UHGV virus genome: UHGV-2198558
Strand: one strand, 5' to 3'
DNA: 45,555 nt
Source: a virus
Position numbers and translations under genes: made by a program. This document shows positions 11,796-41,582 of this stretch, in pieces. The notes under the pieces were generated by a model, which had not been told where the DNA came from, ran no database searches, and saw only the letters and a list, made by a program, of their open reading frames with translations. Position 1 is the first letter of the stretch. Each line of letters starts with the position of its first letter.

Positions 11796-14681
11796 GTGGT
11801 GATTTTATTGAGCAGACGTGTACTTTCCATCGACTTAGAGACCTATTCGGATGTAGACCTCCCGAACTGCGGTGTGTACCGCTATGTTGAGGGAGATTTC
11901 CATATCCTGCTGTTCGCATATGCATTTGACGATGAGGAGACAAAATGCGTGGATATGGCCTGCGGGGAGCAGCTCCCGGCAGAGGTCGTGGATGCGCTGC
12001 AGGATGACAGTATTATCAAATCGGCATGGAACGCACAGTTTGAGCGTACCTGCCTTTCAAAATATCTCGGTACGCAGATTTCTCCGGACTCGTGGCAATG
12101 CACGATGGTATGGGCGGCATCGCTTTCACTTCCGCTGAAGCTGGCAACGGCTGCACAGGCACTGAAAACTGCACAGCAGAAGGACGCTGTCGGTGAGCGT
12201 CTTATCCGTTATTTCTCTCTGCCCTGTAAGCCCACCAAAGCAAACGGCGGCAGAACAAGAAATCTGCCGGAACACGCCCCCGAAGACTGGAAGCTGTTCA
12301 AAAGCTACTGCATACAGGACGTGGAAACCGAGCGGGATATCCGCCGCAGGCTTGAAAAGTTCCCCCTGCTCCCGCAGGAATGGGACTACTACCACATGGA
12401 TCAGCGGATCAATGATCGCGGTATCCTGATCGACAAAGAGCTTGTGCAGCAGGCTATTATCTGCAATATGGCAATGTCCGAAGAAATGACAAAACGTGCA
12501 TACGCTCTGACAGGACTTGAAAATCCGAATTCCGTATCACAGCTCAAGGGATGGCTTGAGGAGCGTGGCATTGAGGTGGATTCCCTCGGCAAAAAGAATG
12601 TCGCTTCTCTTATCACAGACCTCGACAGGCACAGCGCAGACGGTGAGGCTCTGGATATGATGAAGCTGCGGTTGCAGATGGCAAAGTCCTCTGTGAAAAA
12701 GTATCAGGCGGCAGAGAGATACATCTGTCAGGACGGCAGGGCGCACGGACTGTTTCAGTTTTCCGGAGCTCAGCGAACACAGCGCTGGTGTCTTACCGGC
12801 GATCATGAAATACTGACAGATAAAGGCTGGCTCAGGCTTGATAATTGGCAGGGCGGTAAGATTGCTTGTTGGAATCCTAATCAGGAAATGGTCTCGTTCC
12901 AGAAAGCGAACGTATTGTGCTTTGAATATGACGGTCCTATCTACCGCTATGAGGACAAACGGATCGATCAGATCAGCACGCCGGATCACAAAATGCGTGT
13001 AAAGAAACGGTATAACGGCGAGTGGACGGATGACACTGTTGGCAATATGGAAAAGTATCGTCCTTCTATTCCGTTTACCGGACGCAGACAAACGATGCCC
13101 GGCTTGGAGCACGCAGAACTGAGGGTACTGGTGATGACGCAGGCTGACGGCAGCTATAAAGAAGATGGAATGCTCTGCTTCCATTTCAAGAAGAAAAGGA
13201 AAATAGAACGGTGCAAACATCTGCTCAGACAGGCGGGCATTTATTTCACAGTGAATGAATGCAGGACAGATGGAACAACGCAGATCAAGATTCCTTCCCG
13301 TGAGCAGCCGATGTATCTAAGAATGTTTCATAACAAGACATTTGGAATGTGGCTTCTCGATGAAAGCCCGGATGTTTTCTTTGATGAGCTTCGGTATTGG
13401 GACGGATCGCAAAGCGCCAAAAACAGTATCCAATATACCACAACGAACAAAGTGAATGCCGATATTGTTCAGGCTTTTGCTCATACAAGTGGTCGCTGTG
13501 CAAAAATGAAAACGGTCATCCGGGATAAAGAACACCCGAATTGGAGCGATGCATACTATCTCGATATATGGCTCACTCCGAAAAACTGTCATGAAATCAG
13601 AGTGAAGCCGACTATCTCGCAATTCAGCGGCAAAATATACTGTGCTGAAACCCCAACCGGATACTTCCTTGTAAGACGTAATGGTAAAGTGTGGGTAACA
13701 GGAAACAGCGGGCGCGGCATTCAATTACAGAACCTGCCGCAGAACCACATCTCTACCCTCGATGAAGCAAGAGAACTTGTCAAAATGGGCTGCTTTGACA
13801 TGATCGAAGCACTGTACGGCAATACGCCGGATATCCTGTCACAGCTTATCCGCACGATGCTCATTCCGAAGGACGGCTGTGAATTTATCGTGGCAGACTT
13901 CTCCGCCATTGAAGCGAGAGTACTTGCGTGGCTTGCCGGAGAACAGTGGCGGCTCGATGCCTTCAAGCGTGGCGAGGATATTTACTGTGCATCCGCATCG
14001 CAAATGTTCGGTGTTCCGGTCGTGAAGCACGGCATCAATGGAGAACTGCGGCAGAAAGGCAAGGTCGCTGAGCTTGCCTGTGGTTACGGAGGTGGCAGCG
14101 GTGCGCTGATCTCTATGGGTGCGCTGGATATGGGACTGAAAGAGGATGAACTTCCCGACATCATTTCAAGCTGGCGCGATGCAAACCCGGAGATCGTGAA
14201 ATTCTGGTATGCCGTGGAGAAAGCGGCGATCGAAACAGTCAAGGACCACGCGGAAAGAACGGTCGGCAGGATCGGTTTTCAGTTCTCTGCAAATACACTG
14301 TGGATCGTGCTGCCGTCCGGGCGCAGACTTGCCTACATCAAGCCGAGGTTACAGCCGAACCGTTTCGGGCGTATGGCGCTGACCTTTGAAGGACTCGGTG
14401 CAAACAACAAATGGACGCGCGGTGAGACATACAGCGGCAAGCTGACGGAGAACATCACACAGGCGACCGCCCGTGACCTGCTTGCAGAGGCAATGCACCG
14501 AATGGAGCTTGCGGGACTTGACATAGTCGGTCATGTGCATGATGAGGTCATTTTGGAAGTGCCGAAAAGACAATATACGGTCGATGATGTGTGCAATATC
14601 ATGAATCAAAATCCGAGATGGGCAGACGGTCTGCCCTTATCATCTGCCGGATATACCGGCAATTACTACTTCAAAGACTGA
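11796..14681 (+). CDS. Family-A DNA polymerase (3'-5' exonuclease plus polymerase) interrupted by an intein
   Basis: Exo motif SIDLETYSD; polymerase motif A FIVADFSAIEARVLAW, motif B RQKGKVAELACGYGGG, motif C HVHDEVILE. Start uncertain (GTG 11796 or TTG 11808). Confidence 0.85.
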   Translation: MVILLSRRVLSIDLETYSDVDLPNCGVYRYVEGDFHILLFAYAFDDEETKCVDMACGEQLPAEVVDALQDDSIIKSAWNAQFERTCLSKYLGTQISPDSWQCTMVWAASLSLPLKLATAAQALKTAQQKDAVGERLIRYFSLPCKPTKANGGRTRNLPEHAPEDWKLFKSYCIQDVETERDIRRRLEKFPLLPQEWDYYHMDQRINDRGILIDKELVQQAIICNMAMSEEMTKRAYALTGLENPNSVSQLKGWLEERGIEVDSLGKKNVASLITDLDRHSADGEALDMMKLRLQMAKSSVKKYQAAERYICQDGRAHGLFQFSGAQRTQRWCLTGDHEILTDKGWLRLDNWQGGKIACWNPNQEMVSFQKANVLCFEYDGPIYRYEDKRIDQISTPDHKMRVKKRYNGEWTDDTVGNMEKYRPSIPFTGRRQTMPGLEHAELRVLVMTQADGSYKEDGMLCFHFKKKRKIERCKHLLRQAGIYFTVNECRTDGTTQIKIPSREQPMYLRMFHNKTFGMWLLDESPDVFFDELRYWDGSQSAKNSIQYTTTNKVNADIVQAFAHTSGRCAKMKTVIRDKEHPNWSDAYYLDIWLTPKNCHEIRVKPTISQFSGKIYCAETPTGYFLVRRNGKVWVTGNSGRGIQLQNLPQNHISTLDEARELVKMGCFDMIEALYGNTPDILSQLIRTMLIPKDGCEFIVADFSAIEARVLAWLAGEQWRLDAFKRGEDIYCASASQMFGVPVVKHGINGELRQKGKVAELACGYGGGSGALISMGALDMGLKEDELPDIISSWRDANPEIVKFWYAVEKAAIETVKDHAERTVGRIGFQFSANTLWIVLPSGRRLAYIKPRLQPNRFGRMALTFEGLGANNKWTRGETYSGKLTENITQATARDLLAEAMHRMELAGLDIVGHVHDEVILEVPKRQYTVDDVCNIMNQNPRWADGLPLSSAGYTGNYYFKD
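12789..13706 (+). mobile_element. Intein (306 aa) within the DNA polymerase, with candidate LAGLIDADG homing-endonuclease motifs
   Basis: Starts CLTGDHEILTDKGW (block A, Cys1) and ends VWVTGN followed by Ser; internal LRVLVMTQADGSY and LRYWDGSQ motifs. Inserted in ...GAQRTQRW / SGRGIQLQNLP. Confidence 0.7.
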
Positions 14682-15974: not shown

Positions 15975-16411
15975 GAGAATATGTTGTCGAAAACGAGTTT
16001 GTCAAGGCGGTAAAAGCGGCAGGCGGTGTGGCATACAAGCTGACATCGCAGACCGCAAACGGACTGCCGGACAGACTCGTTCTGTTCCCGGCGGCAAAGA
16101 CGATTTTCGTGGAGCTGAAAGCACCGGGGAAAATGATGCGACCGTTGCAGCGTAAAAGACGGTATCAGCTTATGAAACTCGGCTTTCCGGTGCTGTGCAT
16201 TGACAGGATGCCGCAGATCAAGCCGTTCATATCAGCAGCATTGTCATGGACACCCGGTGAGCCGTTCCCGGAAGGCATCGGTGCGAAGATACCCGATCTG
16301 GAAAGGGCAACGCTGCCGACGGATATGGATAACTTCGGGGAAACGCTTGAACCCATCGATCCAGACAATCTGATAGAGTTTTATGAAATAGAGGACGGTG
16401 ATGATGCATGA
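15971..16411 (+). CDS. VRR-NUC domain nuclease
   Basis: GLPDRLVLFP...FVELKAPGK...LQRKRRYQ pattern. Start uncertain (TTG 15971 after GGAAGGA, or ATG 15911). Confidence 0.65.
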   Translation: MREYVVENEFVKAVKAAGGVAYKLTSQTANGLPDRLVLFPAAKTIFVELKAPGKMMRPLQRKRRYQLMKLGFPVLCIDRMPQIKPFISAALSWTPGEPFPEGIGAKIPDLERATLPTDMDNFGETLEPIDPDNLIEFYEIEDGDDA

Positions 16412-16905
16412 TTAACCCTAAACGCAGAGCTGTGAGAAAAAGCTGCTCATACTGCGGAACTGTCTTTACCTATGTCGGAAGTCATGGTACAAGAAATAAG
16501 CATTTTTTCTGTTCTCATGAATGCTATATTGCCTTTAAGACAAAGAAAGCAGAAGTGAAATGCGATTGGTGCGGCAAATCAATGCTGAAAAAACGCTCTG
16601 ATATATGGAGAACGGATCACAATTTCTGCTGCCCCGAATGCTGTTTACTGTATAGGCAAAAGCAAGGCGAAACTTCATGGAATCATCGTGTGAATGGAAT
16701 AACCGTACACAGGGGCATTTTGGAGAAGAAGCTCGGACGAGAACTGCGTGCGGATGAAGAAGTACACCTTATCGATGGTAACCATTTCAATAATGATCCG
16801 GACAATCTCATCGCCCTTTCCAAATCGGAACACGCCAAAATTCATTCTTCTTGGAAAGCGAGGGACGAGTATGGAAAATACGTTAAAACGCAGTCAGATT
16901 CATGA
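16408..16905 (+). CDS. HNH homing endonuclease with N-terminal zinc-finger-like CxxC pairs
   Basis: HLIDGNHFNNDPDNLIALSKSEHAKIH HNH motif; ATGA overlap with the VRR-NUC stop. Confidence 0.8.
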   Translation: MINPKRRAVRKSCSYCGTVFTYVGSHGTRNKHFFCSHECYIAFKTKKAEVKCDWCGKSMLKKRSDIWRTDHNFCCPECCLLYRQKQGETSWNHRVNGITVHRGILEKKLGRELRADEEVHLIDGNHFNNDPDNLIALSKSEHAKIHSSWKARDEYGKYVKTQSDS

Positions 16906-18253: not shown

Positions 18254-18338
18254 GATCATACTCTCCGTATGATCCGCACTGAAAAGACGACAAAGCGGCG
18301 ACAAAACGGTTACACCGCACTCTATGGAGGTGAAAACT

Positions 18339-18842
18339 ATGGCGCGTAAGAACAAACGCCTGAAAACAGAATACCACAGAGGTCTCGGTTTTGATCCGCG
18401 AAAGTATATGACTTCCTACTCCCACCAAACTCGCTGTGAATCAATTCCGACTCCCGACCGTGCTCCAAAGCGCGGCGATATCTGGTTTGCGCGGCTCGGC
18501 ACACATCCGAATTCCAGTGTGCAGGGCGGCACCCGTCCCGTTATCATCATTTCTAACGACCTCGGCAACGAACACGCTGACACCGTCAATGTTGTGCCGA
18601 TGACCAGACACCTGAAAAAGCCGGAGCTGCCTTGTCACACTCCGCTTTCTCCCGGCAGCATTACCGATAGCAGACAGCCGCTTGAACTGTCAATGGTGCT
18701 GGCGGAGCAGCTCACAACTGTCAGCAAGAACGCACTTCGCTATTATGCAGGTCATATTTCCGATGACGAAGCTATGAACCGCATCGAAACCGCTGTTATT
18801 GCGCAGCTCAGTCTTGAAAGGAGATATTCCAAATGCCTGTGA
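18339..18842 (+). CDS. MazF/PemK-like protein with a 48-aa basic N-terminal extension
   Basis: GDIWFARLGTHPNSSVQGGTRPVIIISND and NVVPMT parallel E. coli MazF GDLIWVDFDPTKGSEQAGHRPAVVLS and CVPCTT. GGAGGT RBS 7 nt before ATG 18339. Confidence 0.6.
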   Translation: MARKNKRLKTEYHRGLGFDPRKYMTSYSHQTRCESIPTPDRAPKRGDIWFARLGTHPNSSVQGGTRPVIIISNDLGNEHADTVNVVPMTRHLKKPELPCHTPLSPGSITDSRQPLELSMVLAEQLTTVSKNALRYYAGHISDDEAMNRIETAVIAQLSLERRYSKCL

Positions 18843-21500: not shown

Positions 21501-21568
21501 GAGTGTGTAAGCGACAAAGCGTGGCAAGGTCAAAATCCAATAAACAATCATACAGGAGGAACACGAAT

Positions 21569-22663
21569 ATGAGAATCATTACTTCAGAACAGGTATCCGC
21601 AGGACATCCCGACAAGATCTGTGACCAAATCGCGGATGCCATCGTGACAGACTGCCTTCAGCATGACCGCAGCAGTCGTGTTGCGATAGAGTGTCTTTTC
21701 AAGAACCGCTGTCTTGTGATCGCCGGTGAGCTGACCAGTACCCATGAGCCGGACTACAAGGCTCTGGTGCAGCAGGTGTTCGACCGTATCAACAACGGCG
21801 GAGCTGAGAACAGCGATGCGGGACTTGACTACAAGCTGGACTTCACCGCCGATGATCTGGACATTGCGATTCTGGTCGATCACCAGAGCAATGACATTGC
21901 GCTCGGTGTGAATGTCGGCGGTGCAGGAGATCAGGGTATGATGTACGGCTATGCGACCAACGAAACGCCGGAGATGCTCCCGATCCCCTTCGTGCTGGCT
22001 ACCAGATTTCTGGAACTGCTGAAAGCCTACCCCTGCCGTATGCTGAAAGCCGATGCAAAGGCACAGGTCAGCTATGACTATGACAGCGGTCGCATTACCA
22101 CCTTCCTCTGCTCGGTGCAGCATACACACGATGTGGATGTTGAGGACTTCAAGCCCATCATCGAAAAGCTGATGGTGAGAACGGCAACCGAATACGGGCT
22201 GAATACAGACTTTGCAAAGCTCGTCAACCCGACCGGCAGATTTGTCATAGGCAGTTCCTTTGCGGACTGCGGCGTTACCGGACGCAAGCTCGCCTGCGAT
22301 ACCTATGGCGGTATCGGGCATATCGGCGGCGGTGCAATGTCCGGCAAAGATCCGTCTAAGGTTGACCGCAGCGGCGCATATGCAGCAAGAAAAATCGCAA
22401 GGGATATCGTCAGCGCCGGATATTCAGACAAGGCAGAGGTGCAGATCGCATACGCCATCGGTGTGGCAGAGCCCGTATCCGTGTATGTAGAGACTTTTGG
22501 CACGGAGCATCAGGATACGGAGTTCATCAACCAGTATGTTCGTGAGAATTATGACCTCACGCCGAGGGGAATCATCGAAGGGCTGCATCTGCTCGATGTG
22601 GACTATAACGCCATTTCCGCATACGGACACTTCGGAAAACAGAACCTTCCGTGGGAACTATAA
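21569..22663 (+). CDS. metK: S-adenosylmethionine synthetase
   Basis: Collinear with bacterial MetK: SAGHPDKICDQIAD, GAGDQGMMYGYA, DTYGG, GGGAMSGKDPSKVDRSGAYAARKIA; GGAGGA RBS before ATG 21569. Confidence 0.88.
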   Translation: MRIITSEQVSAGHPDKICDQIADAIVTDCLQHDRSSRVAIECLFKNRCLVIAGELTSTHEPDYKALVQQVFDRINNGGAENSDAGLDYKLDFTADDLDIAILVDHQSNDIALGVNVGGAGDQGMMYGYATNETPEMLPIPFVLATRFLELLKAYPCRMLKADAKAQVSYDYDSGRITTFLCSVQHTHDVDVEDFKPIIEKLMVRTATEYGLNTDFAKLVNPTGRFVIGSSFADCGVTGRKLACDTYGGIGHIGGGAMSGKDPSKVDRSGAYAARKIARDIVSAGYSDKAEVQIAYAIGVAEPVSVYVETFGTEHQDTEFINQYVRENYDLTPRGIIEGLHLLDVDYNAISAYGHFGKQNLPWEL

Positions 22664-22689
22664 TAAATTTTTTGAAATTTTTTTTGATT

Positions 22690-22733
22690 GGATACCCACA
22701 AAATGCCCTCTCCCACGACAGTATATGAGGGGC
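22690..22733. repeat. Copy 2 of the 44-bp intergenic repeat
   Basis: ggatacccacaaaatgccctctcccacgacagtatatgaggggc; hairpin preserved through an A-U to G-U change. Confidence 0.6.
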
Positions 22734-22826
22734 GTTGTTCAGACCGACCACAAACACACTACAAACCAAGCGGGACTGACCGCCCCTATCACTATGCAAC
22801 ACCACTGTGGAAAGGAGGCAGAGACA

Positions 22827-23186
22827 ATGCCAAGCAGACCAAAAACACCATGCAGACACCCCGGCTGTGCTGCGCTCGTACCTTATGGCACCAAGTATTG
22901 TGACAAGCACCGTTCTCTCCATCCGGAGGACACACGCTCCGCAGGCAGTCGAGGCTATGGCACCACATGGAACAAGACCCGCAAGCGTTACCTTGAGACG
23001 CATCCGCTGTGCGTGGAGTGCATGAAGCAAGGGCGCTATATCAAGGCGACCGATGTCGATCACATCATGCCGCACCGAGGAGACAATGTTCTCTTCTGGG
23101 ATCAGAGCAACTGGCAGAGCCTCTGCCACCGACACCACAGCATCAAGACCCGAAATGAGGATCACACCCCCGAGTACAAGTACTAA
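22827..23186 (+). CDS. HNH endonuclease (small phage type)
   Basis: AAAGGAGG RBS; CRHPGC...CDKH...PLCVEC...DVDHIMP...N.QSLC..HH pattern; 119 aa. Confidence 0.8.
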   Translation: MPSRPKTPCRHPGCAALVPYGTKYCDKHRSLHPEDTRSAGSRGYGTTWNKTRKRYLETHPLCVECMKQGRYIKATDVDHIMPHRGDNVLFWDQSNWQSLCHRHHSIKTRNEDHTPEYKY

Positions 23187-24097: not shown

Positions 24098-24583
24098 ATG
24101 ACACTGACAGAGAACTTCATTCGTGATGCGATACAGCTTGACAGCGGTGCAGAGGTCATGTACGGCAGCGATCAGATCTATGACACCTACCCCTGCCGCT
24201 TTCCGACTGTCGAGTTCCAGCTCATGGCAACGGATGCACTTGCGGAGGTCGCAGACCGCATCCGAATGGAGAAAGGCTATCTCCCGATGCATCCGAGGGA
24301 CGGGCGCACGGACGATGTTGACAATGACGGCTGGTACGACTTTTATATCGGGATTAGCAAGCTCCCCAGCGATCATAAGGAATGCAAACTTGACAGCAGC
24401 ATTAGTTTCGTGGTCGTCAATTCAGATTCCGATGACAACGAGGATATGTACAGCATTGACCTGACTGAAACAGAGCAGGCGTATGTGTATGAAATACTGA
24501 ACCGGCAATGCCGGAGATATCACGGGAAGGACTGTGCCACGCTTCTGGCAGAGTCTGAAAAGGAGCTGATGGATACAGCATGA
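24098..24583 (+). CDS. Hypothetical protein
   Basis: AGGAGGA RBS before ATG 24098; 161 aa; stop overlaps the nrdD start. Confidence 0.55.
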   Translation: MTLTENFIRDAIQLDSGAEVMYGSDQIYDTYPCRFPTVEFQLMATDALAEVADRIRMEKGYLPMHPRDGRTDDVDNDGWYDFYIGISKLPSDHKECKLDSSISFVVVNSDSDDNEDMYSIDLTETEQAYVYEILNRQCRRYHGKDCATLLAESEKELMDTA

Positions 24584-26721
24584 GGATAATAAAACGAAAC
24601 GGCGCTGAGGTGCCGTATGACTGCGAAAAGATACGAGCCGCAATATCAGCGGCAAATGATGAAGTGCCGGAGAAGATATCAGATACAGTGATCGGATTCA
24701 TTGTCGGGAATGTAGAAAAACGCTGTCATGCCCTTGCAAGACCTGTCCATGTCGAAGAAGTCCAGGACATGGTTCTTGATGAACTGGACAAGGCCGAGGC
24801 TTACAAACTTGCACGGCACTACAGTGAGTACCGCCTGTGGCATGAGCAGCAGCGCCGTATGAACACCACCGACGGCAAGATTCTCAGTCTGCTGGAACGC
24901 AACAACGAGGAGGCAAAGCAGGAGAACGCCAACAAGAACCCCATCATCAACAGCACGCTCCGTGACTATATGGCGGGAGAAGTCAGTCGGGATATATGTC
25001 GGCGCTTCCTGTTTCCGGAGGATGTGATCGCCGCCCATGATGACGGCATCATTCATGTGCATGACCTCGACTACATCGCAGAGCCGATGCACAATTGCTG
25101 TCTGGTGAATCTGGAGGATATGCTTCAAAACGGCACAGTGGTATCCGGTACTATGATTGAGAAGCCGCACAGCTTTTCGACTGCCTGCAATATCGCAACG
25201 CAGATCATTGCACAGGTGGCATCAAATCAGTACGGCGGACAGACGGTATCTCTGGCACATCTTGCGCCTTTCGTGGATATCAGCCGACAGAAAATTCGTG
25301 CCGAGGTGTTCGAGGATGTGAACTGCGACTGCGGTGCAAAGCTGTCTGAAAAAGAACTGGACTACATCGTAGAAAAGCGCGTGCGACGGGAAGTCAAGCG
25401 AGGCGTACAAACGATCCAGTATCAGATCAACACGCTCCTGACAACCAACGGTCAGACACCGTTCGTGACGGTATTCATGTATCTGGACGAGGCACCGGAG
25501 GGACAGACCAGAGATGACCTTGCACTCATTATCGAGGAAACGCTGCTTCAGCGTATCGAGGGCGTGAAAAACGAGAAGGGCGTGTGGATCACACCGGCAT
25601 TCCCGAAGCTGATCTATGTTCTCGATGAGGACAACATTCAGCCCGGTTCCAAGTATTACTACCTCACCGAGCTTGCGGCGAAGTGTACCGCAAAGCGTAT
25701 GGTTCCCGACTATATTTCCGCAAAGGTGATGAAACGTCTGAAGGGTGATGTGTATGCCTGCATGGGCTGCCGGTCATTCCTGACACCTTCTGCCGACCAC
25801 AAATACTACGGCAGATTCAATCAGGGAGTCGTCACGATCAACCTTGTGGATGTTGCGTGTAGCGCAGGCGGAGACGAAGATAAATTCTGGCAGCTTCTTG
25901 ATGAACGCTGCGAACTGTGCCGCAAGGCTCTGATGTGCAGGCATGAACGTCTGAAAGGTACGCCGTCCGATGTTGCACCGATCCTCTGGCAGTATGGCGC
26001 ACTTGCGAGACTGAAGAACGGTGAGGTCATTGACAATTTGCTGTATAACAACTACAGCACGATCTCCCTCGGCTATGCCGGCATCGCGGAAATGACCTAC
26101 CGCATGACAGGCTGTTCGCATACAGAGTCGGAGGGAAAATCCTTCGCCATTTCAGTGATGCATTTTCTGAACGATAAGTGCAGCAAATGGAGAGCTGAAA
26201 GCAATATCTCGTTCTCGCTATACGGCACGCCGATGGAATCTGTGACCTACAAATTTGCAAAGTGTCTGCAAAGGCGGCATGGTATTATTCCGCACGTCAC
26301 GGACAGGAGCTACATTACCAACAGCTATCATGTCCATGTGACAGAGCCGATCGACGCCTTCAGCAAGTTGTCCTTTGAAGCGGAGTTTCAGGAGCTTTCT
26401 CCCGGCGGTGCGATTTCGTATGTAGAAGTGCCGAACCTTCAGAACAACATTCCTGCGGTTCTGGCACTCATGAAACACATTTACGAAACGATTTTATATG
26501 CTGAACTCAACACTAAGTCCGACTACTGTCAGGCTTGTGGCTATGACGGGGAGATGCAGATCGTGGAAGAGGACGGCAAGCTGATCTGGGAATGCCCGAA
26601 CTGCGGCAACCGTGACCAGCGGACAATGAATGTCTGCCGCCGCACCTGCGGATATCTCGGAACGCAGTTCTGGAATCAAGGGCGCACACAGGAGATCGCA
26701 GAAAGGGTGATGCACCTGTGA
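24580..26721 (+). CDS. nrdD: Anaerobic ribonucleoside-triphosphate reductase
   Basis: N-terminal ATP-cone; C-terminal zinc ribbon CQACG...CPNCG; glycyl-radical motif RRTCGYLG; 713 aa. Confidence 0.88.
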   Translation: MRIIKRNGAEVPYDCEKIRAAISAANDEVPEKISDTVIGFIVGNVEKRCHALARPVHVEEVQDMVLDELDKAEAYKLARHYSEYRLWHEQQRRMNTTDGKILSLLERNNEEAKQENANKNPIINSTLRDYMAGEVSRDICRRFLFPEDVIAAHDDGIIHVHDLDYIAEPMHNCCLVNLEDMLQNGTVVSGTMIEKPHSFSTACNIATQIIAQVASNQYGGQTVSLAHLAPFVDISRQKIRAEVFEDVNCDCGAKLSEKELDYIVEKRVRREVKRGVQTIQYQINTLLTTNGQTPFVTVFMYLDEAPEGQTRDDLALIIEETLLQRIEGVKNEKGVWITPAFPKLIYVLDEDNIQPGSKYYYLTELAAKCTAKRMVPDYISAKVMKRLKGDVYACMGCRSFLTPSADHKYYGRFNQGVVTINLVDVACSAGGDEDKFWQLLDERCELCRKALMCRHERLKGTPSDVAPILWQYGALARLKNGEVIDNLLYNNYSTISLGYAGIAEMTYRMTGCSHTESEGKSFAISVMHFLNDKCSKWRAESNISFSLYGTPMESVTYKFAKCLQRRHGIIPHVTDRSYITNSYHVHVTEPIDAFSKLSFEAEFQELSPGGAISYVEVPNLQNNIPAVLALMKHIYETILYAELNTKSDYCQACGYDGEMQIVEEDGKLIWECPNCGNRDQRTMNVCRRTCGYLGTQFWNQGRTQEIAERVMHL

Positions 26722-27185
26722 ATTACTGCGGTCTGAATAAAAACGATATTGCCAACGGTGAAGGTGTGCGTGTGTCGCTGTTCGTGTCCGGATGCCGGAA
26801 TCACTGCATCGGCTGTCACAATCCCGAAGCATGGGATTTCGGCTACGGTCAGCCGTTTACCAAAGAAACCGAAAAAGAGATCATCGAAGCCCTGCGTCCT
26901 TCTTGGATACAGGGCATTTCTATACTCGGCGGTGAACCCTGCGAGGAGGAAAACGAGCGTGTTCTGATACCGTTTCTGAAACGGATAAAACTTGAGTCTC
27001 CGAATTCGGACACTTGGCTGTTCTCCGGATACACCTACGAAATGCTTCAGAATGATGAGATTCTCAAATACATTGATGTGCTTGTGGACGGGCCGTTCCT
27101 GATGGAACAGAAGAACATCTCCCTTGCATTCCGGGGCAGTCGGAATCAACGAATCCTCCGATTAAGAAATGGGGTGCGTGTATGA
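26718..27185 (+). CDS. nrdG: Anaerobic RNR activating protein (radical SAM)
   Basis: CRNHCIGCHN (CxxxCxxC) near the N-terminus; GTG start overlapping the nrdD stop. Confidence 0.82.
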   Translation: MNYCGLNKNDIANGEGVRVSLFVSGCRNHCIGCHNPEAWDFGYGQPFTKETEKEIIEALRPSWIQGISILGGEPCEEENERVLIPFLKRIKLESPNSDTWLFSGYTYEMLQNDEILKYIDVLVDGPFLMEQKNISLAFRGSRNQRILRLRNGVRV

Positions 27186-29544: not shown

Positions 29545-29776
29545 ATGTGCGGTCGTGACCGCTTACACAGAGATTTCTATGCTCAAGGGCGACGATCTGA
29601 AATATCTGTATGACTATCTTTCCGGCTTTATCGGCAGACCGGTGTATACACACGAGATTTCTGCTGTGGTGATGGCTTACAGAGAGCAGATCAGGGAGGA
29701 CTTCCTCGATCTGTGCAGGAACGCAAAGGAGGCGGATGATGGATCAGAAACACTTGACTCTCGGCAGCTTATTTGA
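29531..29776 (+). CDS. Hypothetical small protein
   Basis: GGGGAGGA RBS before ATG 29531; overlaps flanking methyltransferase genes. Confidence 0.4.
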   Translation: MTKHECAVVTAYTEISMLKGDDLKYLYDYLSGFIGRPVYTHEISAVVMAYREQIREDFLDLCRNAKEADDGSETLDSRQLI

Positions 29777-32339
29777 CGGCTCCGGTGGCTTTCCGCTTGG
29801 CGGCATCCTTGCAGGGATCGAGCCGAAGTGGAGCAGCGAAATTGAACCATTCCCGGTGCTTGTCACGCACAAGCGGCTGCCGCAGGTGAAGCACTACGGC
29901 GATGTATCCAAACTGAACGGAGCAGAGCTTCCGCCGGTGGATATCATCACCTTCGGCAGCCCGTGTCAGGATCTGTCCATAGCGGGCAAGCGCGCCGGAA
30001 TCCATGACGGTGATCGGTCAAACCTGTTCTTTCAGGCGATCCGCATCATCAAAGAAATGAGGGATGCAACAAATGGACGATATCCGCGATACTGCGTCTG
30101 GGAAAATGTCCCCGGCGCTTTCTCATCCAACGGAGGAAACGACTTCAAGGCTGTCCTCGAAGCAGTTATCGGAGTTAAAGAAAAAGGGATCGAGGTGCCT
30201 GCGCCTGAAAATCACAGATGGGCAAAATCAGACGTATATCTGGGAGACGGATGGAGCGTGGCTTACCGAGTTTTCGATGCTCAATACTGGGGTGTCCCCC
30301 AACGCAGAGCAAGAATCTACCTTGTCGCAGATCTTGCTGGTGGAAGTGCCGGAGAAGTATTATTTAAGTCCGAAGGCGTGTCTGGGTATACTCCGCAGGG
30401 CTTCCGTGCGTGGCAAGGAGCTGCCGGAGGTGCTGAAGAAGGCACTGGAGAGACAGGCGGGCGGTCTGACGCTGGAGGTGGAACCCTCTGCCTGAATACA
30501 CAGGGCAACAGCGGCGTCGGCATCACCGAGAACAAGGCTCTCGCACTGGTCGCACAGGATCATGGCAATCATCCGGCTGTGCTTCATGCGGTCGGTATCG
30601 ACGGCTACAATGCTGCGGTCACCGATGATACGGCAGCAACGCTTGGTGTGAACTGCGGAATGTCCACAGGCAGAAACGGTGTCCTGCAGGCGGCGGGATT
30701 TTCCACAGAACACAGTGCAAAAGCAAGGAGCATCGGCTACGAGGAAGAGGTATCTCCCACACTTCGAGCCGGTGTTGTTCCGGCGGCAATGGAGTTATAT
30801 GAAAATCATGGGCAGGACAGCAGATTCAGAGGACCTTTGGATGTAGCACAGCCTGTGACTGCTACCTACGGCATGGGCGGCAACAATCAGCCGCTTGTGG
30901 TAGAGAACAATCCCACGGACGGCAGAGCGAAGATCAATCCCGACGGTGTGTTTCAGACGCTCTGCGGACGAGCCGGAACAGGCGGAAACAACACGCCGCT
31001 TGTTGCTGAACCGGTCACGCTGAAAATCAGGTCGGGATGTGAGGGCGGTGGCAAGGGTGCTTTATGGCAGACCGACAAGTCTGCTACGCTCGGCACAAAC
31101 AATGACCAGAGTGTATTTGTTCCGTTCGTCAAGGGAACACGTCCGCACTCTGCTGAAGAGGGGCAAACATGGAAACCCGGCGAGGTCGCCAATACACTGA
31201 ATACCTTTGATGTCGGTGAAAGTCGCTGCAATGAACTTGTGGTGGAAGAGCCGCAGATCAGGGCTTTCGGTGTATGCAGCAAGCATTCCAATGCGATGAT
31301 GTCCGACAATCCGCACAGCGGATTCTATGAGGCGACCACAAGCAGAACGCTCGACCAAAGTGGTGGAAATTCTGTGACATCGAATCAGGGCGGCATCTGC
31401 GTGGTAGCACCTGCGCCTGAAACCTTCGATGTGCGTTTCACATCAGACGGTACAAAAAACGCTCGTGGGCATTGCTATCCGACAGACATCTCCCGATGCC
31501 TTGATACGAGCGAGGGATCGCCAGACTCGAATCACGGCGGTGTCGCTGTGGTGGCTCTTGAACCGGGGGCTGCATCACGTGTCGGCGGTCATGTATACAG
31601 TGACGGCAAAAGCGGTACGCTTCGAGCCAATGCCGGCGATAATCAGCAGGCTGTTGTGGTCGCCGAGCCGGAGACCTATGCTCTGCAAGGCTCGATGATC
31701 GGTCGTGCCGACAAGAACGGTCCGCAGGGTGATGGCATCAACGAGGATGTGTGCTTTACGCTCAATACATCGGACAGACACGCCATTGCCGCACCTGATC
31801 CGTCCTTCACAATTTCCCGCGACAACCATTTTGCCGTTTCGGAGGATGTATCCGTTACAGCCGTGGCAAGAGGCCCTGCGGCAGTCGCAGCACCGGCAGA
31901 CCACTATTGCACCAGTAAGAATTCGCATCATACGGTCGCCGCCCATGAGCAGGCAAACACGCTGGTCGCTTCCGACTGGAAGGATCCGCCGCTTGTGAAC
32001 GACCTTCCGAATGACGAGCCAGTATATATCGTTCGCCGCTTGACTCCGGTTGAGTGCGCCAGATTGCAGGGATTCCCTGACTGGTGGTGTGCCGACCTTG
32101 CAATTACTGATCCTTCCGATGAGGAGATCGCCTTCTGGACGGAGGTCTGGGAGACATGGCGGCAGGTCACAAATCCCAAGGGCAAGCCGAAAACGGAAAA
32201 GCAGATCCGCAAATGGCTGGCTGATCCGTACACGGATTCAGCGGAGTACAAGCTGTGGGGCAACGGTGTCTCAGAGCCGGTCGTATACTTCGTGCTTTCC
32301 GGCATCGCATGGGCAGCGCAGAGAGATACACAAAAGTGA
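29736..32339 (+). CDS. C5-cytosine DNA methyltransferase with an unusually long, repetitive target-recognition region
   Basis: Motif I LFDGSGGF, motif IV GSPCQDLSIAGKR, motif VI ENVPGA, motif X RRLTPVECARLQGFPDWW; about 550 aa between motifs VIII and IX with at least 8 TL-type motifs; 867 aa. Confidence 0.85.
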   Translation: MMDQKHLTLGSLFDGSGGFPLGGILAGIEPKWSSEIEPFPVLVTHKRLPQVKHYGDVSKLNGAELPPVDIITFGSPCQDLSIAGKRAGIHDGDRSNLFFQAIRIIKEMRDATNGRYPRYCVWENVPGAFSSNGGNDFKAVLEAVIGVKEKGIEVPAPENHRWAKSDVYLGDGWSVAYRVFDAQYWGVPQRRARIYLVADLAGGSAGEVLFKSEGVSGYTPQGFRAWQGAAGGAEEGTGETGGRSDAGGGTLCLNTQGNSGVGITENKALALVAQDHGNHPAVLHAVGIDGYNAAVTDDTAATLGVNCGMSTGRNGVLQAAGFSTEHSAKARSIGYEEEVSPTLRAGVVPAAMELYENHGQDSRFRGPLDVAQPVTATYGMGGNNQPLVVENNPTDGRAKINPDGVFQTLCGRAGTGGNNTPLVAEPVTLKIRSGCEGGGKGALWQTDKSATLGTNNDQSVFVPFVKGTRPHSAEEGQTWKPGEVANTLNTFDVGESRCNELVVEEPQIRAFGVCSKHSNAMMSDNPHSGFYEATTSRTLDQSGGNSVTSNQGGICVVAPAPETFDVRFTSDGTKNARGHCYPTDISRCLDTSEGSPDSNHGGVAVVALEPGAASRVGGHVYSDGKSGTLRANAGDNQQAVVVAEPETYALQGSMIGRADKNGPQGDGINEDVCFTLNTSDRHAIAAPDPSFTISRDNHFAVSEDVSVTAVARGPAAVAAPADHYCTSKNSHHTVAAHEQANTLVASDWKDPPLVNDLPNDEPVYIVRRLTPVECARLQGFPDWWCADLAITDPSDEEIAFWTEVWETWRQVTNPKGKPKTEKQIRKWLADPYTDSAEYKLWGNGVSEPVVYFVLSGIAWAAQRDTQK

Positions 32340-34621: not shown

Positions 34622-35566
34622 ATGACTGAGAAAACCGCACAGCAGATCAACAGAATGAAGGAGCAGACCATCGGGGTTGAGATCGAGATGAACAACATCA
34701 CCCGCAAGGCTGCCGCAAAGCTCGCCGCCGACTTCTTCGGCACGAACCGCTACGAGGACACGGCCTGCCGCAACGGCTACGAAACCTACAGTGCTTGGGA
34801 CGCACAGGGACGCGAGTGGAAATTCCAGAAGGACGTCAGCATCGCAGGCCCCGACAGCGAAAAGTGCGAACTGGTCACACCGATCCTGCACTACGCAGAC
34901 ATCGAAACCCTGCAGGAGCTTGTGAGAAGGCTCAGAAAGGCAGGAGCGCGCAGTGATTACACGCGGGGATGTGGAGTCCACTGCCACATTGGAGCCCAGG
35001 GACACACACCGCAGAGCCTCAGAAACCTCGCAAACCTTATGGCAAGCCACGAAACCCTGATCGCCGAGGCAATCAGAGTAGACCAGAGCAGAATGCACCG
35101 CTACTGCAGAACAGTTGACCCGAGATTCCTTGAACAGCTCAACCGCAAAAAGCCCACCACGATGGCACAGCTTGCGGACATCTGGTACGGCGCACAGGGC
35201 TGCGAATACGGCAGAACCCACCACTACAACGACAGCCGCTATCACATGCTCAACCTCCACGCTACCTTCACCAAAGGCACGGTCGAGTTCAGACTTTTCC
35301 AGTTCGCACCGCCTTCCAACGGCAAGCAGAACGGGCTCCACGCAGGCAAGCTCAAGAGCTACATTCAGCTCTGCCTCGCAATGAGCCAGATGGCAAAGGA
35401 CCTGCGGAGCGCCAGCCCCAAGGAACAGCAGAAGGAAAACAAAAAGTTCGCCATGCGGACTTGGCTGATGAGAATGGGATTCATCGGGGATGAATTCGCA
35501 ACGGCGAGAGAGGTCCTCACTGAGAACCTTACGGGCGACAACAGCTTCCGCTTCGGCAGATCTTAA
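34622..35566 (+). CDS. Amidoligase_2-family enzyme (putative peptide/metabolite ligase)
   Basis: N-terminal GVEIE motif; 314 aa; immediately upstream of an AIG2-like cyclotransferase gene, the conserved neighbourhood I recall for this family in Firmicutes phages. Confidence 0.65.
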   Translation: MTEKTAQQINRMKEQTIGVEIEMNNITRKAAAKLAADFFGTNRYEDTACRNGYETYSAWDAQGREWKFQKDVSIAGPDSEKCELVTPILHYADIETLQELVRRLRKAGARSDYTRGCGVHCHIGAQGHTPQSLRNLANLMASHETLIAEAIRVDQSRMHRYCRTVDPRFLEQLNRKKPTTMAQLADIWYGAQGCEYGRTHHYNDSRYHMLNLHATFTKGTVEFRLFQFAPPSNGKQNGLHAGKLKSYIQLCLAMSQMAKDLRSASPKEQQKENKKFAMRTWLMRMGFIGDEFATAREVLTENLTGDNSFRFGRS

Positions 35567-35831
35567 AGGCCTGCCCTTCGGGGCGGAAGAACAAGCGGAA
35601 CGGCACGGCGGCGCACACAGCCGCCACGGTCTCGGCTCTCGCCTCGGTCGGTGCTTCTGCTTCGCAGAGGTTGCCACTGGCAACCCGCACCCCCGTGTGT
35701 GGCGGAAAGGGTATCCTCCGAATCGGTATCCCATCTCAGTCAACCGCGCCACACAGCGCAAATGTAGGCAAGGCATAAAATGCACAACATACGGCACAGA
35801 ATCGCCCTCGATGATCTGTTCATTTACCCGC

Positions 35832-35860
35832 TTGATAATGCCGCCGAAATGAGTTAACAT
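35832..35860 (+). promoter_or_regulatory. Cassette promoter 3 (diverged leader)
   Basis: TTGATA, 17-nt spacer, TAACAT. Confidence 0.45.
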
Positions 35861-35899
35861 AGCACTACCGCAAGGAAAAAACGCAAAGGAGAACATAGC

Positions 35900-36367
35900 A
35901 TGAACAAGAAAAAATACTACATAGCCTACGGCAGCAACCTCAACATCCGCCAGATGCGATTCCGCTGCTCAGGCGCAAAGCCCATCGGCATTTCCGCGAT
36001 TCCTGACTACGAACTGCTCTTCAAGGGCAGCAAGACGGGAGCGTACCTCACCATCGAGCCGAAGGACGGCGGGCTTGTTCCGGTCGCCGTGTGGGAAGTG
36101 ACAGCCGACGATGAGAAGCACCTCGACATCTACGAGGGCTACCCGAACTTCTACTACAAGAAGGAAGTCCGCCTGCCAATCAGGCTGGCAAACGGCAAGA
36201 CCAAAAAGGTCACGGCATTTGTCTACATCATGCACGAGGAGCGTGAGATTGCGATCCCGTCAATGACCTACATCCGCACCTGCGAGGAAGGCTACCGCAA
36301 CTTCGGCTTCGACACCAAGTTCCTTGATGCCGCCTACGAGATCAGCGCAAAGGAGGTACAGCGATGA
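35900..36367 (+). CDS. AIG2-like / gamma-glutamyl cyclotransferase family protein
   Basis: YIAYGSNLNIRQM N-terminal motif; AAAGGAG RBS; 155 aa. Confidence 0.75.
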   Translation: MNKKKYYIAYGSNLNIRQMRFRCSGAKPIGISAIPDYELLFKGSKTGAYLTIEPKDGGLVPVAVWEVTADDEKHLDIYEGYPNFYYKKEVRLPIRLANGKTKKVTAFVYIMHEEREIAIPSMTYIRTCEEGYRNFGFDTKFLDAAYEISAKEVQR

Positions 36368-38515: not shown

Positions 38516-38898
38516 ATGACAAAGAAGGAAATGAAAGCCGCAGTTGCCAAGCTGAAGATGCTGCAGAACGGCAAAGCCGCCCTTGAGGGAATGACCGAAG
38601 CGGACTGCCTTGAGCTTTTCGGGATCAGCAGAGCGCAGGCACTTGCAAACACAAACGCCGCCCTTGCCAAAACCGAGCAGGAGATTTNNNNNNNNNNNNN
38701 NNNNNNNNNNNNGAGCATCCGCTGACAGGCATCGACAAACAGCTCTTCGAGATCGCAGCAAAGCACCTGATCACGGTGCAGGAGCGCGGAGACCTTGAAG
38801 CCCGCCACTGCGACAGCGAGGACTTCATCGAGGGTTCGGTCTGGGGGCTGGAAGCCGCCCTCAAGGATGCCTACGAGGCAGGACGCAAGAGCAAGTAA
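38516..38898 (+). CDS. Hypothetical protein interrupted by an assembly gap
   Basis: CGGAGGT RBS and ATG 38516; coding resumes after the N-run and ends at TAA 38896-38898. Frame across the gap cannot be determined. Confidence 0.4.
38688..38712. other. Assembly gap (25 N)
   Basis: Run of n characters in the sequence. Confidence 0.99.
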
Positions 38899-41108: not shown

Positions 41109-41582
41109 ATGGCTCAGAGAGGCAGAAAACCGACGCCGACAGCAATCAAGGAACTGGAAGGCAATCCCGGAAAACGACCGCTGAATGATGCAGAGCCGAA
41201 GCCGGAACGCAAGGCACCGCCCTGTCCGAAGTGGCTGGAGCCCGAAGCAAAAAAGGAATGGCGCAGGCTGTCAAAGCAACTGGAGCAGATTGGTGTGCTG
41301 ACCGAGGTCGATCAGGCGGCATTCGCATCCTACTGTCAGGCATACGCACGATGGAAAGAAGCCGAGGAATTCATGACCCAGCACGGCACGATCGTAAAAA
41401 CAAAATCAGGTTACTGGCAGCAGGTTCCGCAGGTATCCATTGCGCAAACTTATCTGAAGATCATGAACAAGATCGCAGAGCAGTTTGGCCTGACCCCGGC
41501 GGCAAGAAGCCGTATCACTGCCGGCGCAGATATGAAAAACGCTGCCGTTGACGATATGGATGAACTTCTCGGAGGTGGCTGA
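41109..41582 (+). CDS. terS: Terminase small subunit (P27-family-like)
   Basis: MAQRGRKPTPTAIKELEGNPGKRPLN N-terminus; AAGGAG RBS 8 nt before ATG 41109; stop overlaps the terL start. Confidence 0.8.
   Translation: MAQRGRKPTPTAIKELEGNPGKRPLNDAEPKPERKAPPCPKWLEPEAKKEWRRLSKQLEQIGVLTEVDQAAFASYCQAYARWKEAEEFMTQHGTIVKTKSGYWQQVPQVSIAQTYLKIMNKIAEQFGLTPAARSRITAGADMKNAAVDDMDELLGGG

Follow-up and report, generated by a model that had tools for sequence, protein, structure and literature searches.

A candidate mobile intein in a gut phage family A DNA polymerase combines an N-terminal cysteine with the residues of the class 3 splicing triad

Two phage inteins of the lineage considered here have been characterized. 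The Bethlehem RDF intein splices to completion, and more slowly with the mutation G316H; in E. coli, the endonuclease that it carries proves toxic (Kelley 2016, mBio, PMC5050341); the absence of a penultimate His (G:6) is tolerated in inteins (Kelley 2016, PMC5050341; Mills 2014). The phage-derived intein AceL NrdHF (6zgq) begins with Ala1, carries Met-Cys-Thr rather than Trp-Cys-Thr, and lacks His at both F:13 and G:6; mutation of its F:4 Cys (C124A/S) abolishes activity, which makes it mechanistically class 3 (Hoffmann 2020, PMC7891396). The catalytic triad of class 3 consists of Cys F:4, His B:10, and Thr G:5, and in the published view the class is a single monophyletic invention, not readily evolved from class 1 (Beyer 2020). 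A Ser or Thr at position +1 is a further class 3 trait. Here we analyze a 306-amino acid (aa) insert in the family A DNA polymerase gene of the virus genome UHGV-2198558, a stretch of 45,555 nt that we refer to as the window and whose numbering we use throughout. It is highly probable that this insert is a functional, mobile intein with a homing endonuclease. It belongs to a known kind, the phage LAGLIDADG inteins, and to a clade in which the Bethlehem RDF and AceL NrdHF inteins are the two characterized members; the catalytic residues of this lineage appear to sit between two known splicing mechanisms.

The polymerase is encoded by one open reading frame (ORF) of 961 codons (11796–14681, + strand), assigned to family A from its two ends (PF00476, E 3.4e-21; phrog_17, E 5.6e-137). 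Its GTG start codon was assigned mechanically; translation may in fact begin a few codons further downstream. The N-extein (11796–12788, +), a 3'-5' exonuclease-like part running up to ...AQRTQRW, was delimited by PF00476, phrog_17, and homologue alignment, and it aligns end to end with the polymerases of SPO2, Javan100, and a heliusvirus. The C-extein (13707–14681, +), beginning SGRGIQLQNLPQN and comprising motif A (DFSAIE), motifs B and C, and the stop codon, matches phrog_10285 (E 3.5e-110 over aa 644–961). Between them lies the insert (12789–13706, +), whose translation is free of stops from CLTGDHEILT to VWVTGN and is followed by Ser at 13707–13709; with a slash marking the point of insertion, the flanks in the window read ...AQRTQRW/SGRGIQLQNLPQN. 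Four homologues (a heliusvirus, Streptococcus phage Javan100, Bacillus phage SPO2 gene L, and a Blautia phage) read ...RTGRW/AGRLVQVQNLPQN without interruption. The sole large gap in their alignment with the window is exactly 306 residues, with no extein residue lost, and the boundaries are therefore right to the base. An earlier reading of the bare sequence, which we call the original prediction, had proposed an intein with these coordinates and terminal residues, a penultimate Gly, and a position ahead of polymerase motif A, and had asked that the extein junctions be confirmed against intein-free homologues. Each of these is borne out: the penultimate residue is Gly305, and DFSAIE lies at aa 701 (window 13896), 64 residues past the junction.

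Polymerase alleles that lack the insert were found among close relatives. In IMG/VR, 21 alleles with 95–97% aa identity to the exteins of the window are without the 918 bp; they read ...ANRTQRW/AGRGIQLQNLPQNH, the junction also being given as ...RTQRW/AGRGIQLQNLPQN, and they carry an Ala codon (GCN) at position +1, versus AGC (Ser) in the window. The empty allele also occurs in Ruminococcus and Oscillospiraceae prophages, including that of the cultured strain R. flavefaciens 007c (...ACACAGCGCTGG/GCAGGACGCGGGATTCAATTGCAGAAT...), which places the host of the phage. The polymerases nearest to the window's own are intein-free, and the insert shows a presence/absence polymorphism among alleles 87–97% identical. 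When the whole protein was compared by tblastn with 50,697 phage records, 2218 matched; none covered 80% of the query, and the best 40 were two-piece matches spanning ~1.93 kb. One intein-free allele, in a metagenome-assembled genome (MAG) labeled Alistipes sp. (L072:1001–2962), is 93% identical to the window's exteins and matches its flanks, with Gln at −5 and Ser at +1, but the Ser codon is TCC, not AGC. The polymerase thus tolerates Ser at this position, and the allele may represent an old intein loss or a permissive recipient. We also considered it as an excision footprint; with TCC in place of AGC, this is not demonstrable.

The genes near the polymerase, a DUF2800/PD-(D/E)XK exonuclease, an Enc34-type single-stranded DNA-binding protein, the polymerase itself, an SNF2 helicase, and a D5-type primase, follow the order of the marker set described for heliusviruses; the published description of that set does not mention inteins. 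A megablast search of the replication module against GenBank phages returned no match, and hence there is no near-identical cultured phage in the GenBank phage set.

Read in the block numbering of Tori 2010 and Mills 2014, the insert has a splicing (HINT) domain, made up of intein aa 1 to ~100 and ~265 to 306, interrupted by a homing endonuclease domain of the monomeric double-LAGLIDADG type (aa ~101–264; 13089–13580, +). Block A, CLTGDHEILT (12789–12818, +), opens with Cys1 as the candidate N-terminal nucleophile and matches block A of the Spl DnaX mini-intein. Block B, RIDQISTPDHKMRV (12960–13001, +; core ISTPDHKM), is conserved in the clade described below and supplies Thr64 (B:7), His67 (B:10), and Met69 (B:12). 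The homing-endonuclease-like motifs that the original prediction had reported are two LAGLIDADG motifs with putative catalytic aspartates: ELRVLVMTQADGSY (13116–13157, +; letters LRVLVMTQADG), with Asp120, and DVFFDELRYWDGSQ (13371–13412, +; letters FFDELRYWDG), with Asp205, a position invariant in a 12-sequence family alignment. Block F, KIYCAETPTGYFLVRR (13632–13679, +; core IYCAETPTGYF), has Cys285 at F:4 and Gly in the place of F:13, where standard inteins usually have Asp and His, respectively. Block G, KVWVTGN together with the Ser+1 codon AGC (13686–13709, +), contributes Thr304 (G:5), Gly305 (G:6), Asn306 (G:7), and Ser+1 (G:8). The insert accordingly combines an in-frame insertion whose exteins are contiguous in the empty allele with Cys1, a block B Thr-x-x-His, and a terminal Asn306 followed by Ser+1; the penultimate His, a common but not obligatory intein feature, is absent.

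Structure prediction and profile comparisons point in the same direction. An AlphaFold2 model of the insert built from 28 input sequences has an intein fold, with a predicted local distance difference test (pLDDT) score of 94.1 and a predicted TM (pTM) score of 0.90. The model resembles the endonuclease-bearing inteins TliVMA, PI-PfuI, and PI-SceI, so that a HINT fold is present, and its middle domain resembles I-DmoI-type LAGLIDADG enzymes, so that a LAGLIDADG fold is present. Among PHROG profiles, the insert alone matches internal stretches of the PhoH-like and ribonucleotide reductase (RNR) families (E 2.5e-19 and 2.1e-14). These matches, together with the 6120 related clusters described below and the confident intein-fold model, exclude chance as the source of the resemblance. 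The hidden Markov model search for LAGLIDADG domains that the original prediction had proposed gave a weak match, Pfam LAGLIDADG_3 at motif 1, with E 0.039 and 14.6 bits, below the cut-off of 22.5. In searches of the PDB, the single insert sequence matched only Spl DnaX, in block A; a profile of the whole family yielded nothing significant (2dch alone, E 0.27) and found no endonuclease. The antisense ORFs that overlap the insert (12537–13220 and 13317–13724), inspected for an antisense or out-of-frame endonuclease, had no Pfam matches.

The insert belongs to a large clade. An exhaustive HMMER search with it recovered 6120 clusters (50% identity level) at E ≤ 1e-3 and 2538 at E ≤ 1e-10. We counted residues in 145 full-length instances from the best 150 proteins, aligned in register. 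Position B:7 is Thr or Ser, B:10 is His, and F:4 is Cys in all 145, as is the Asp of LAGLIDADG motif 1; the Asp of motif 2 is kept in 141/145. Position 1 is Cys in 138/145 and Pro in the remaining 7. At B:12 the residue is Met, Ile, Val, Leu, or Phe; a single instance (1/145) has Trp. The F:13 equivalent is Gly in 124/145; at the C terminus, G:5 is Thr (123/145) or Ser (17/145), G:6 is Gly (141/145), and G:7 is Asn (142/145), followed at +1 by Ser (96/145), Thr (27/145), or Cys (22/145). The penultimate Gly of the window thus reads as the clade consensus and not as a mark of decay.

Members of the clade interrupt many kinds of genes. A tblastn search with the insert matched 334 phage records, and in 298 the match extended over at least 80% of its length; the host genes encode RtcB, RNR alpha and beta, primase/helicase, TOPRIM/PhoH-like, and RecD-like proteins, NAMPT, a Ser/Thr phosphatase, ThyX, and another DNA polymerase; one is annotated "contains intein splice site." Full-length relatives occur in at least 12 unrelated phage proteins. 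The polymerase site occupied in the window, TGR[WF]/[ST]G, accounts for 59/144 divergent clade instances. Neighboring points of the same motif region are used as well, ..GA[HS]/TGRW (13 of 144) and NPN/CQN.P (5 of 144), and so is a motif B site, ..HG/SNYG (~12 of 144). In family A polymerases, the conserved TGRW...NLQNLP region is thus a hot spot for inteins of this clade. Several proteins contain two or three clade inteins (e.g., P0103, P0097, P0100). The seven Pro1 members (P0092, P0093, P0094, P0096, P0122, P0171, and P0172) all lie at family A polymerase sites and retain His B:10, Cys F:4, Thr-Gly-Asn, and both LAGLIDADG aspartates. They fall into at least three groups, each with nearest relatives that have Cys1 and occupy the same polymerase site or an adjacent one, and a neighbor-joining tree places three state changes between Cys1 and Pro1. 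Judged by these residues, the Pro1 members must splice without an N-terminal nucleophile.

We next consider maintenance and movement of the insert. In IMG/VR, 14 contigs carry a window-type intein (62–68% identity) at the identical point (R[WF]/C...TGN/SGR), all with open frames, and an Oscillospiraceae MAG has a copy 85% identical to that of the window. Across ten loci compared with the window, intein identity (62–69%) exceeds extein identity (41–58%) in all ten. The intein has a G+C content of 0.458 (0.50 at third codon positions, GC3), versus 0.53 in the exteins (GC3 0.60–0.61); at other loci, intein G+C stays at 0.40–0.45 while that of the exteins ranges from 0.39 to 0.56. In extein DNA compared with 16 empty alleles, mismatches peak at the junction (0.19–0.20, against 0.10 within the panel), and elsewhere the ratio is mostly ≤1; this pattern is as expected of a short co-conversion tract. 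Synonymous divergence (dS) between copies is saturated, and nonsynonymous divergence (dN) is 0.16–0.35 in the splicing and endonuclease parts alike. Two close pairs give dN/dS (omega) values of 0.22–0.51 for the splicing part and 0.00–0.13 for the endonuclease part, consistent with purifying selection on both domains. Finally, Ser+1 is present in 17/17 intein-bearing polymerase alleles, encoded by TCN in 12 and AGY in 5. The lower G+C, the bump in divergence at the junction, the greater identity of inteins than of exteins, the purifying selection, and the retention of Ser+1 across codon families together argue for an active, mobile intein. Close database matches to the insert are mostly N- or C-terminal halves, and we suspected split or interrupted inteins. 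This was rejected: L005 and L007 are truncated by contig ends, L008, L061, and L062 have frameshifts in long-read or 1.7x-coverage contigs, and the 14 IMG/VR copies are open. Four contigs (L005, L006, L007, and L064) end inside the intein, and with metagenome contigs breaking there and long-read or low-coverage contigs frameshifted, protein databases hold mostly half-precursors.

From these features we can sketch how the element would act. Support for splicing is indirect, coming from selection on the element and on Ser+1, from the essential nature of the interrupted gene, and from the published splicing of a homologue; support for cleavage and homing is likewise indirect, coming from the presence/absence polymorphism, the divergence tract at the junction, and the contrast in G+C. 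The polymerase would be translated as a 961-aa precursor from which the HINT domain excises the intein, joining ...RTQRW to SGRGIQLQNLP... to give a polymerase of 655 aa with Ser in place of the Ala of the empty allele. By the default class 1 route, Cys1, aided by Thr64 and His67, would form a thioester at the N-terminal junction, and Ser+1 would accept the N-extein from it; cyclization of Asn306 would then free the intein without the usual penultimate His, and an O-to-N shift would form the final extein peptide bond. In a co-infection or a lysogen, the double-LAGLIDADG endonuclease, acting through Asp120 and Asp205, would cut the uninterrupted allele at ...CAGCGCTGG/GCAGGACGCGG..., and in the course of repair the cut allele would acquire the intein together with the +1 codon and other bases beside it, a few tens in all.

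Comparison with described inteins clarifies what is shared and what is particular to the insert. The Bethlehem RDF intein, which interrupts the gp51/gp52 phosphoesterase, is a homologue (BLASTP E 5e-11, 23% identity over 295 aa). Like the insert, it consists of a HINT domain with an in-frame double-LAGLIDADG endonuclease, has Cys1, Cys at F:4 (VWCLRV), and a C terminus reading ...LTGN/S, and lies in a phage replication or recombination gene; it differs in its metallophosphoesterase host protein and insertion site and in coming from an Actinobacteria phage rather than a Ruminococcus/Oscillospiraceae phage. Because this Gly-penultimate intein splices fully, the missing His G:6 is no argument against activity of the insert. 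Its published study reports no mutant of either Cys1 or F:4 and so does not decide between mechanisms. AceL NrdHF has Ala1, and hence no N-terminal nucleophile; its two halves are encoded by separate genes that flank a free-standing GIY-YIG endonuclease, and it resides in an RNR beta-type gene, whereas the insert has Cys1, is contiguous, and carries its LAGLIDADG domain in frame. Of the two, it is AceL NrdHF for which class 3 splicing is proven. The canonical class 3 inteins, which bear the Trp-Cys-Thr (WCT) signature (e.g., MP-Be DnaB; Tori 2010, PMC2807308), share with the insert Cys F:4, Thr G:5, Ser or Thr at +1, a link to phages, and LAGLIDADG domains; the insert departs from them in Cys1, Met B:12, Gly G:6, and its site in a polymerase motif. 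The solved endonuclease inteins TliVMA (7qsu), PI-PfuI (1dq3), PI-SceI (1vde), and PI-TkoII (2cw7/2cw8) are only 9–15% identical to it, come from archaeal or yeast hosts, end in the canonical His-Asn, and measure 360–540 aa as opposed to 306; PI-SceI and PI-PfuI also have extra DNA-recognition regions that the insert lacks. An insert in the DNA polymerase of Escherichia phage NHEP1 is a full-length clade member (23% identity). InBase lists further phage polymerase inteins, such as Lactococcus phage KSY1 PolA and the Salmonella SETP and APSE "dpol" entries; these, too, reside in replicative polymerases, and their insertion sites and polymerase subfamilies may differ. In the literature, we found no paper describing the family A polymerase site TGR[WF]/[ST]G..Q.QN.

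Several observations weigh against a functional, mobile intein. No Pfam Hint or intein model matches the insert, and NCBIfam returns nothing for it; the residues that usually assist splicing (Asp F:4, His F:13, and His G:6) are missing; the class 1 steps are assumed, and the closest solved homologue has a different first nucleophile; the junction divergence peak could reflect selection on the flanks instead of co-conversion; and the related copies L008, L061, and L062 contain frameshifts, which are probably errors, although decay of those copies is possible too. If the missing residues and the frameshifts are taken at face value, the intein would be decaying and unable to splice, the polymerase gene dead, and the (pro)phage defective. 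We think this very improbable: the 961-codon frame is open, the unusual residues are clade consensus and not private mutations, the published penultimate-Gly relative splices faster than its His mutant, selection is strongly purifying with Ser+1 maintained, and the frameshifted relatives come from long-read or very-low-coverage contigs (1.7x coverage). Somewhat easier to entertain, if still improbable, is an intein that splices but has an inactive endonuclease and persists as a fixed, vertically inherited passenger. The subthreshold Pfam LAGLIDADG_3 match fits such a passenger, as does the failure of the whole-family profile to reach a PDB endonuclease by sequence; conservation of both catalytic aspartates (145/145 and 141/145) does not, nor do purifying selection on the endonuclease part, the polymorphism among 87–97% identical alleles, the greater conservation of intein than exteins, the divergence tract at the junction, and the toxicity in E. 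coli of the endonuclease of the related RDF intein. The original prediction would have fallen had homologous polymerases contained the segment as a native domain. A lineage-specific polymerase domain of this kind, or an autoprocessing insertion of the bacterial intein-like (BIL) or Hedgehog type, is scarcely credible, as the segment has no counterpart in 95–97% identical alleles yet occurs in unrelated proteins, carries a homing endonuclease, leaves homologue exteins contiguous with no residues lost, and ends in Asn with a +1 nucleophile, a pair that BIL and Hedgehog domains lack. The empty alleles, the fold, the conserved catalytic residues, and the spread through unrelated host proteins all support the intein that was originally proposed.

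Which cysteine attacks first is a separate matter from whether the insert is an intein. By default the insert falls under the sequence definition of class 1, with Cys1 as the candidate nucleophile; seven clade members have Pro1 in its place. Two of the class 3 features set out by Tori 2010 are found in it, Cys285 at F:4 and Thr304 at G:5; the two defining ones, absence of an N-terminal nucleophile and Trp at B:12, are not, Cys1 being present and B:12 being Met69, and for this reason it is not to be filed as class 3. Tentatively, however, splicing of the same element may follow the class 3 route or make use of both routes: Cys285 would attack the N-terminal junction to form a branched thioester at block F, from which the N-extein would pass to Ser+1. 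Cys1 would in that case be redundant, have a regulatory role (such as that of a redox partner of Cys285), or be dispensable. The active-site residues are those of the class 3 triad, and when the clade's splicing-domain profile, with the endonuclease removed, is compared with the PDB, 6zgq leads with E 3.4e-13, the next intein following at 2.5e-5. Cys1 is present in 95% of the clade, while Pro1 has arisen at least three times and Ala1 occurs in the proven class 3 intein AceL NrdHF; in defined class 3 inteins, by contrast, this position is a non-nucleophile. Further points against the class 3 route are the lack of Trp B:12, the rank of Cys as the second most common F:4 residue among inteins generally (Mills 2014), and the filing of the related RDF intein as class 1 by Kelley 2016 (PMC5050341), albeit with no Cys1 or F:4 mutant reported. 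Class 1 inteins with Cys F:4 are also reported as polyphyletic and outside the class 3 clade. On balance we hold it possible, if doubtful, that the invariant Cys285 is the working nucleophile, with a class 3-type branched intermediate, in a Cys1-bearing intein that uses the class 3 route or both.

The window contains additional mobile elements, and the two inteins and two free-standing HNH genes announced by the original prediction, which it took as a heavy load of selfish elements, were all recovered. The second intein (342 aa; 41873–42898, +) lies in the terminase large subunit ORF (41582–44248), within the Walker A P-loop (...PKKNGK/QLALDTP...ERHLW...MQCIQV...VPTHN/SELAAA). Its first residue is Gln and thus no N-terminal nucleophile; Trp stands two residues past the block B His, the F:4 Cys lies in MQCIQV, and the end reads T-H-N/S, so that it shows the textbook class 3 "WCT" signature. 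Pfam LAGLIDADG_3 matches it above the cut-off (E 1.5e-6). A single genome therefore holds a canonical class 3 intein alongside one with Cys1, Cys F:4, and Thr-Gly-Asn. The HNH genes lie at 16408–16905 (+; HNH_3, E 7e-8), overlapping the start of the SNF2 helicase ORF, and at 22497–23186 (+; PF01844, E 1.8e-4, at the cut-off).

The polymerase has another intein site, near motif B (Cys762, AELA/CGYGG; 14079–14081), which is empty in the window. It is filled in L054 (2869–3780) and L058 by a 304-aa intein (CIAEGQLVLT...KLVHN/C), and L018 has two inteins in one polymerase, that at the motif B-proximal site being a mini-intein of ~121 aa. The middle of the long motif B-site intein is rich in Lys, Arg, Ser, and Cys and overlaps a 280-aa ORF in the +1 frame with HNH-like wording; in L054 this ORF had no Pfam HNH match. 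In L078, a 3.3-kb MAG contig, the N-extein (...RTGRW) runs into the N-terminal part of the second-site intein (CLAEGTLILV...), and the contig resumes at ...KLVHN/CGYAGG. We considered it as evidence of a second intein family at the window's site and rejected it, as the extein stretch between the sites, including motif A, is missing and there are in-frame stops; the contig reflects either recombination between two inteins, or another rearrangement, or misassembly.

Among the remaining genes, a C5 cytosine methylase of 867 aa (29736–32339, +) has its methylase ends split by a ~500-aa region rich in Gly, Ala, Thr, and Ser; it was examined as a third intein host and dismissed for want of intein-like termini. 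Accessory genes in and around the replication module (18324–18842, +; 21503–22663; 24580–27185; 34622–36367) encode, among others, a protein with a PemK/MazF-type toxin domain, located immediately before the D5-type primase, an S-adenosylmethionine (SAM) synthetase, the anaerobic RNR NrdD and its activase NrdG, and an amidoligase that forms a pair with a gamma-glutamyl cyclotransferase. At 38688–38712 the ORFs are interrupted by 25 consecutive N, either masked bases or a gap.

For annotation, the gene is to be read as a 655-aa polymerase of a heliusvirus-like gut or rumen phage of Ruminococcus/Oscillospiraceae, interrupted by a 306-aa intein. It escapes standard scans with Pfam and NCBIfam, and metagenome assemblies and gene callers tend to break within it, which is a practical pitfall when phage phylogenies or marker-gene surveys are based on the polymerase. 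A further addition is an intein site in wide use, lying within the conserved TGRW/QNLP region of family A polymerases. The clade's small, fast-splicing, His-independent splicing domain could serve protein engineering, as AceL NrdHF already does. The specialist interest lies in the pattern across the clade rather than in this copy: the clade joins an N-terminal Cys to the Cys-His-Thr triad of class 3, and Pro1 and Ala1 occur naturally among its members, and it therefore offers a natural series for the origin of the class 3 mechanism. Were Cys285 indeed nucleophilic, this would run against the views that class 3 is not readily derived from class 1 and that it arose once.

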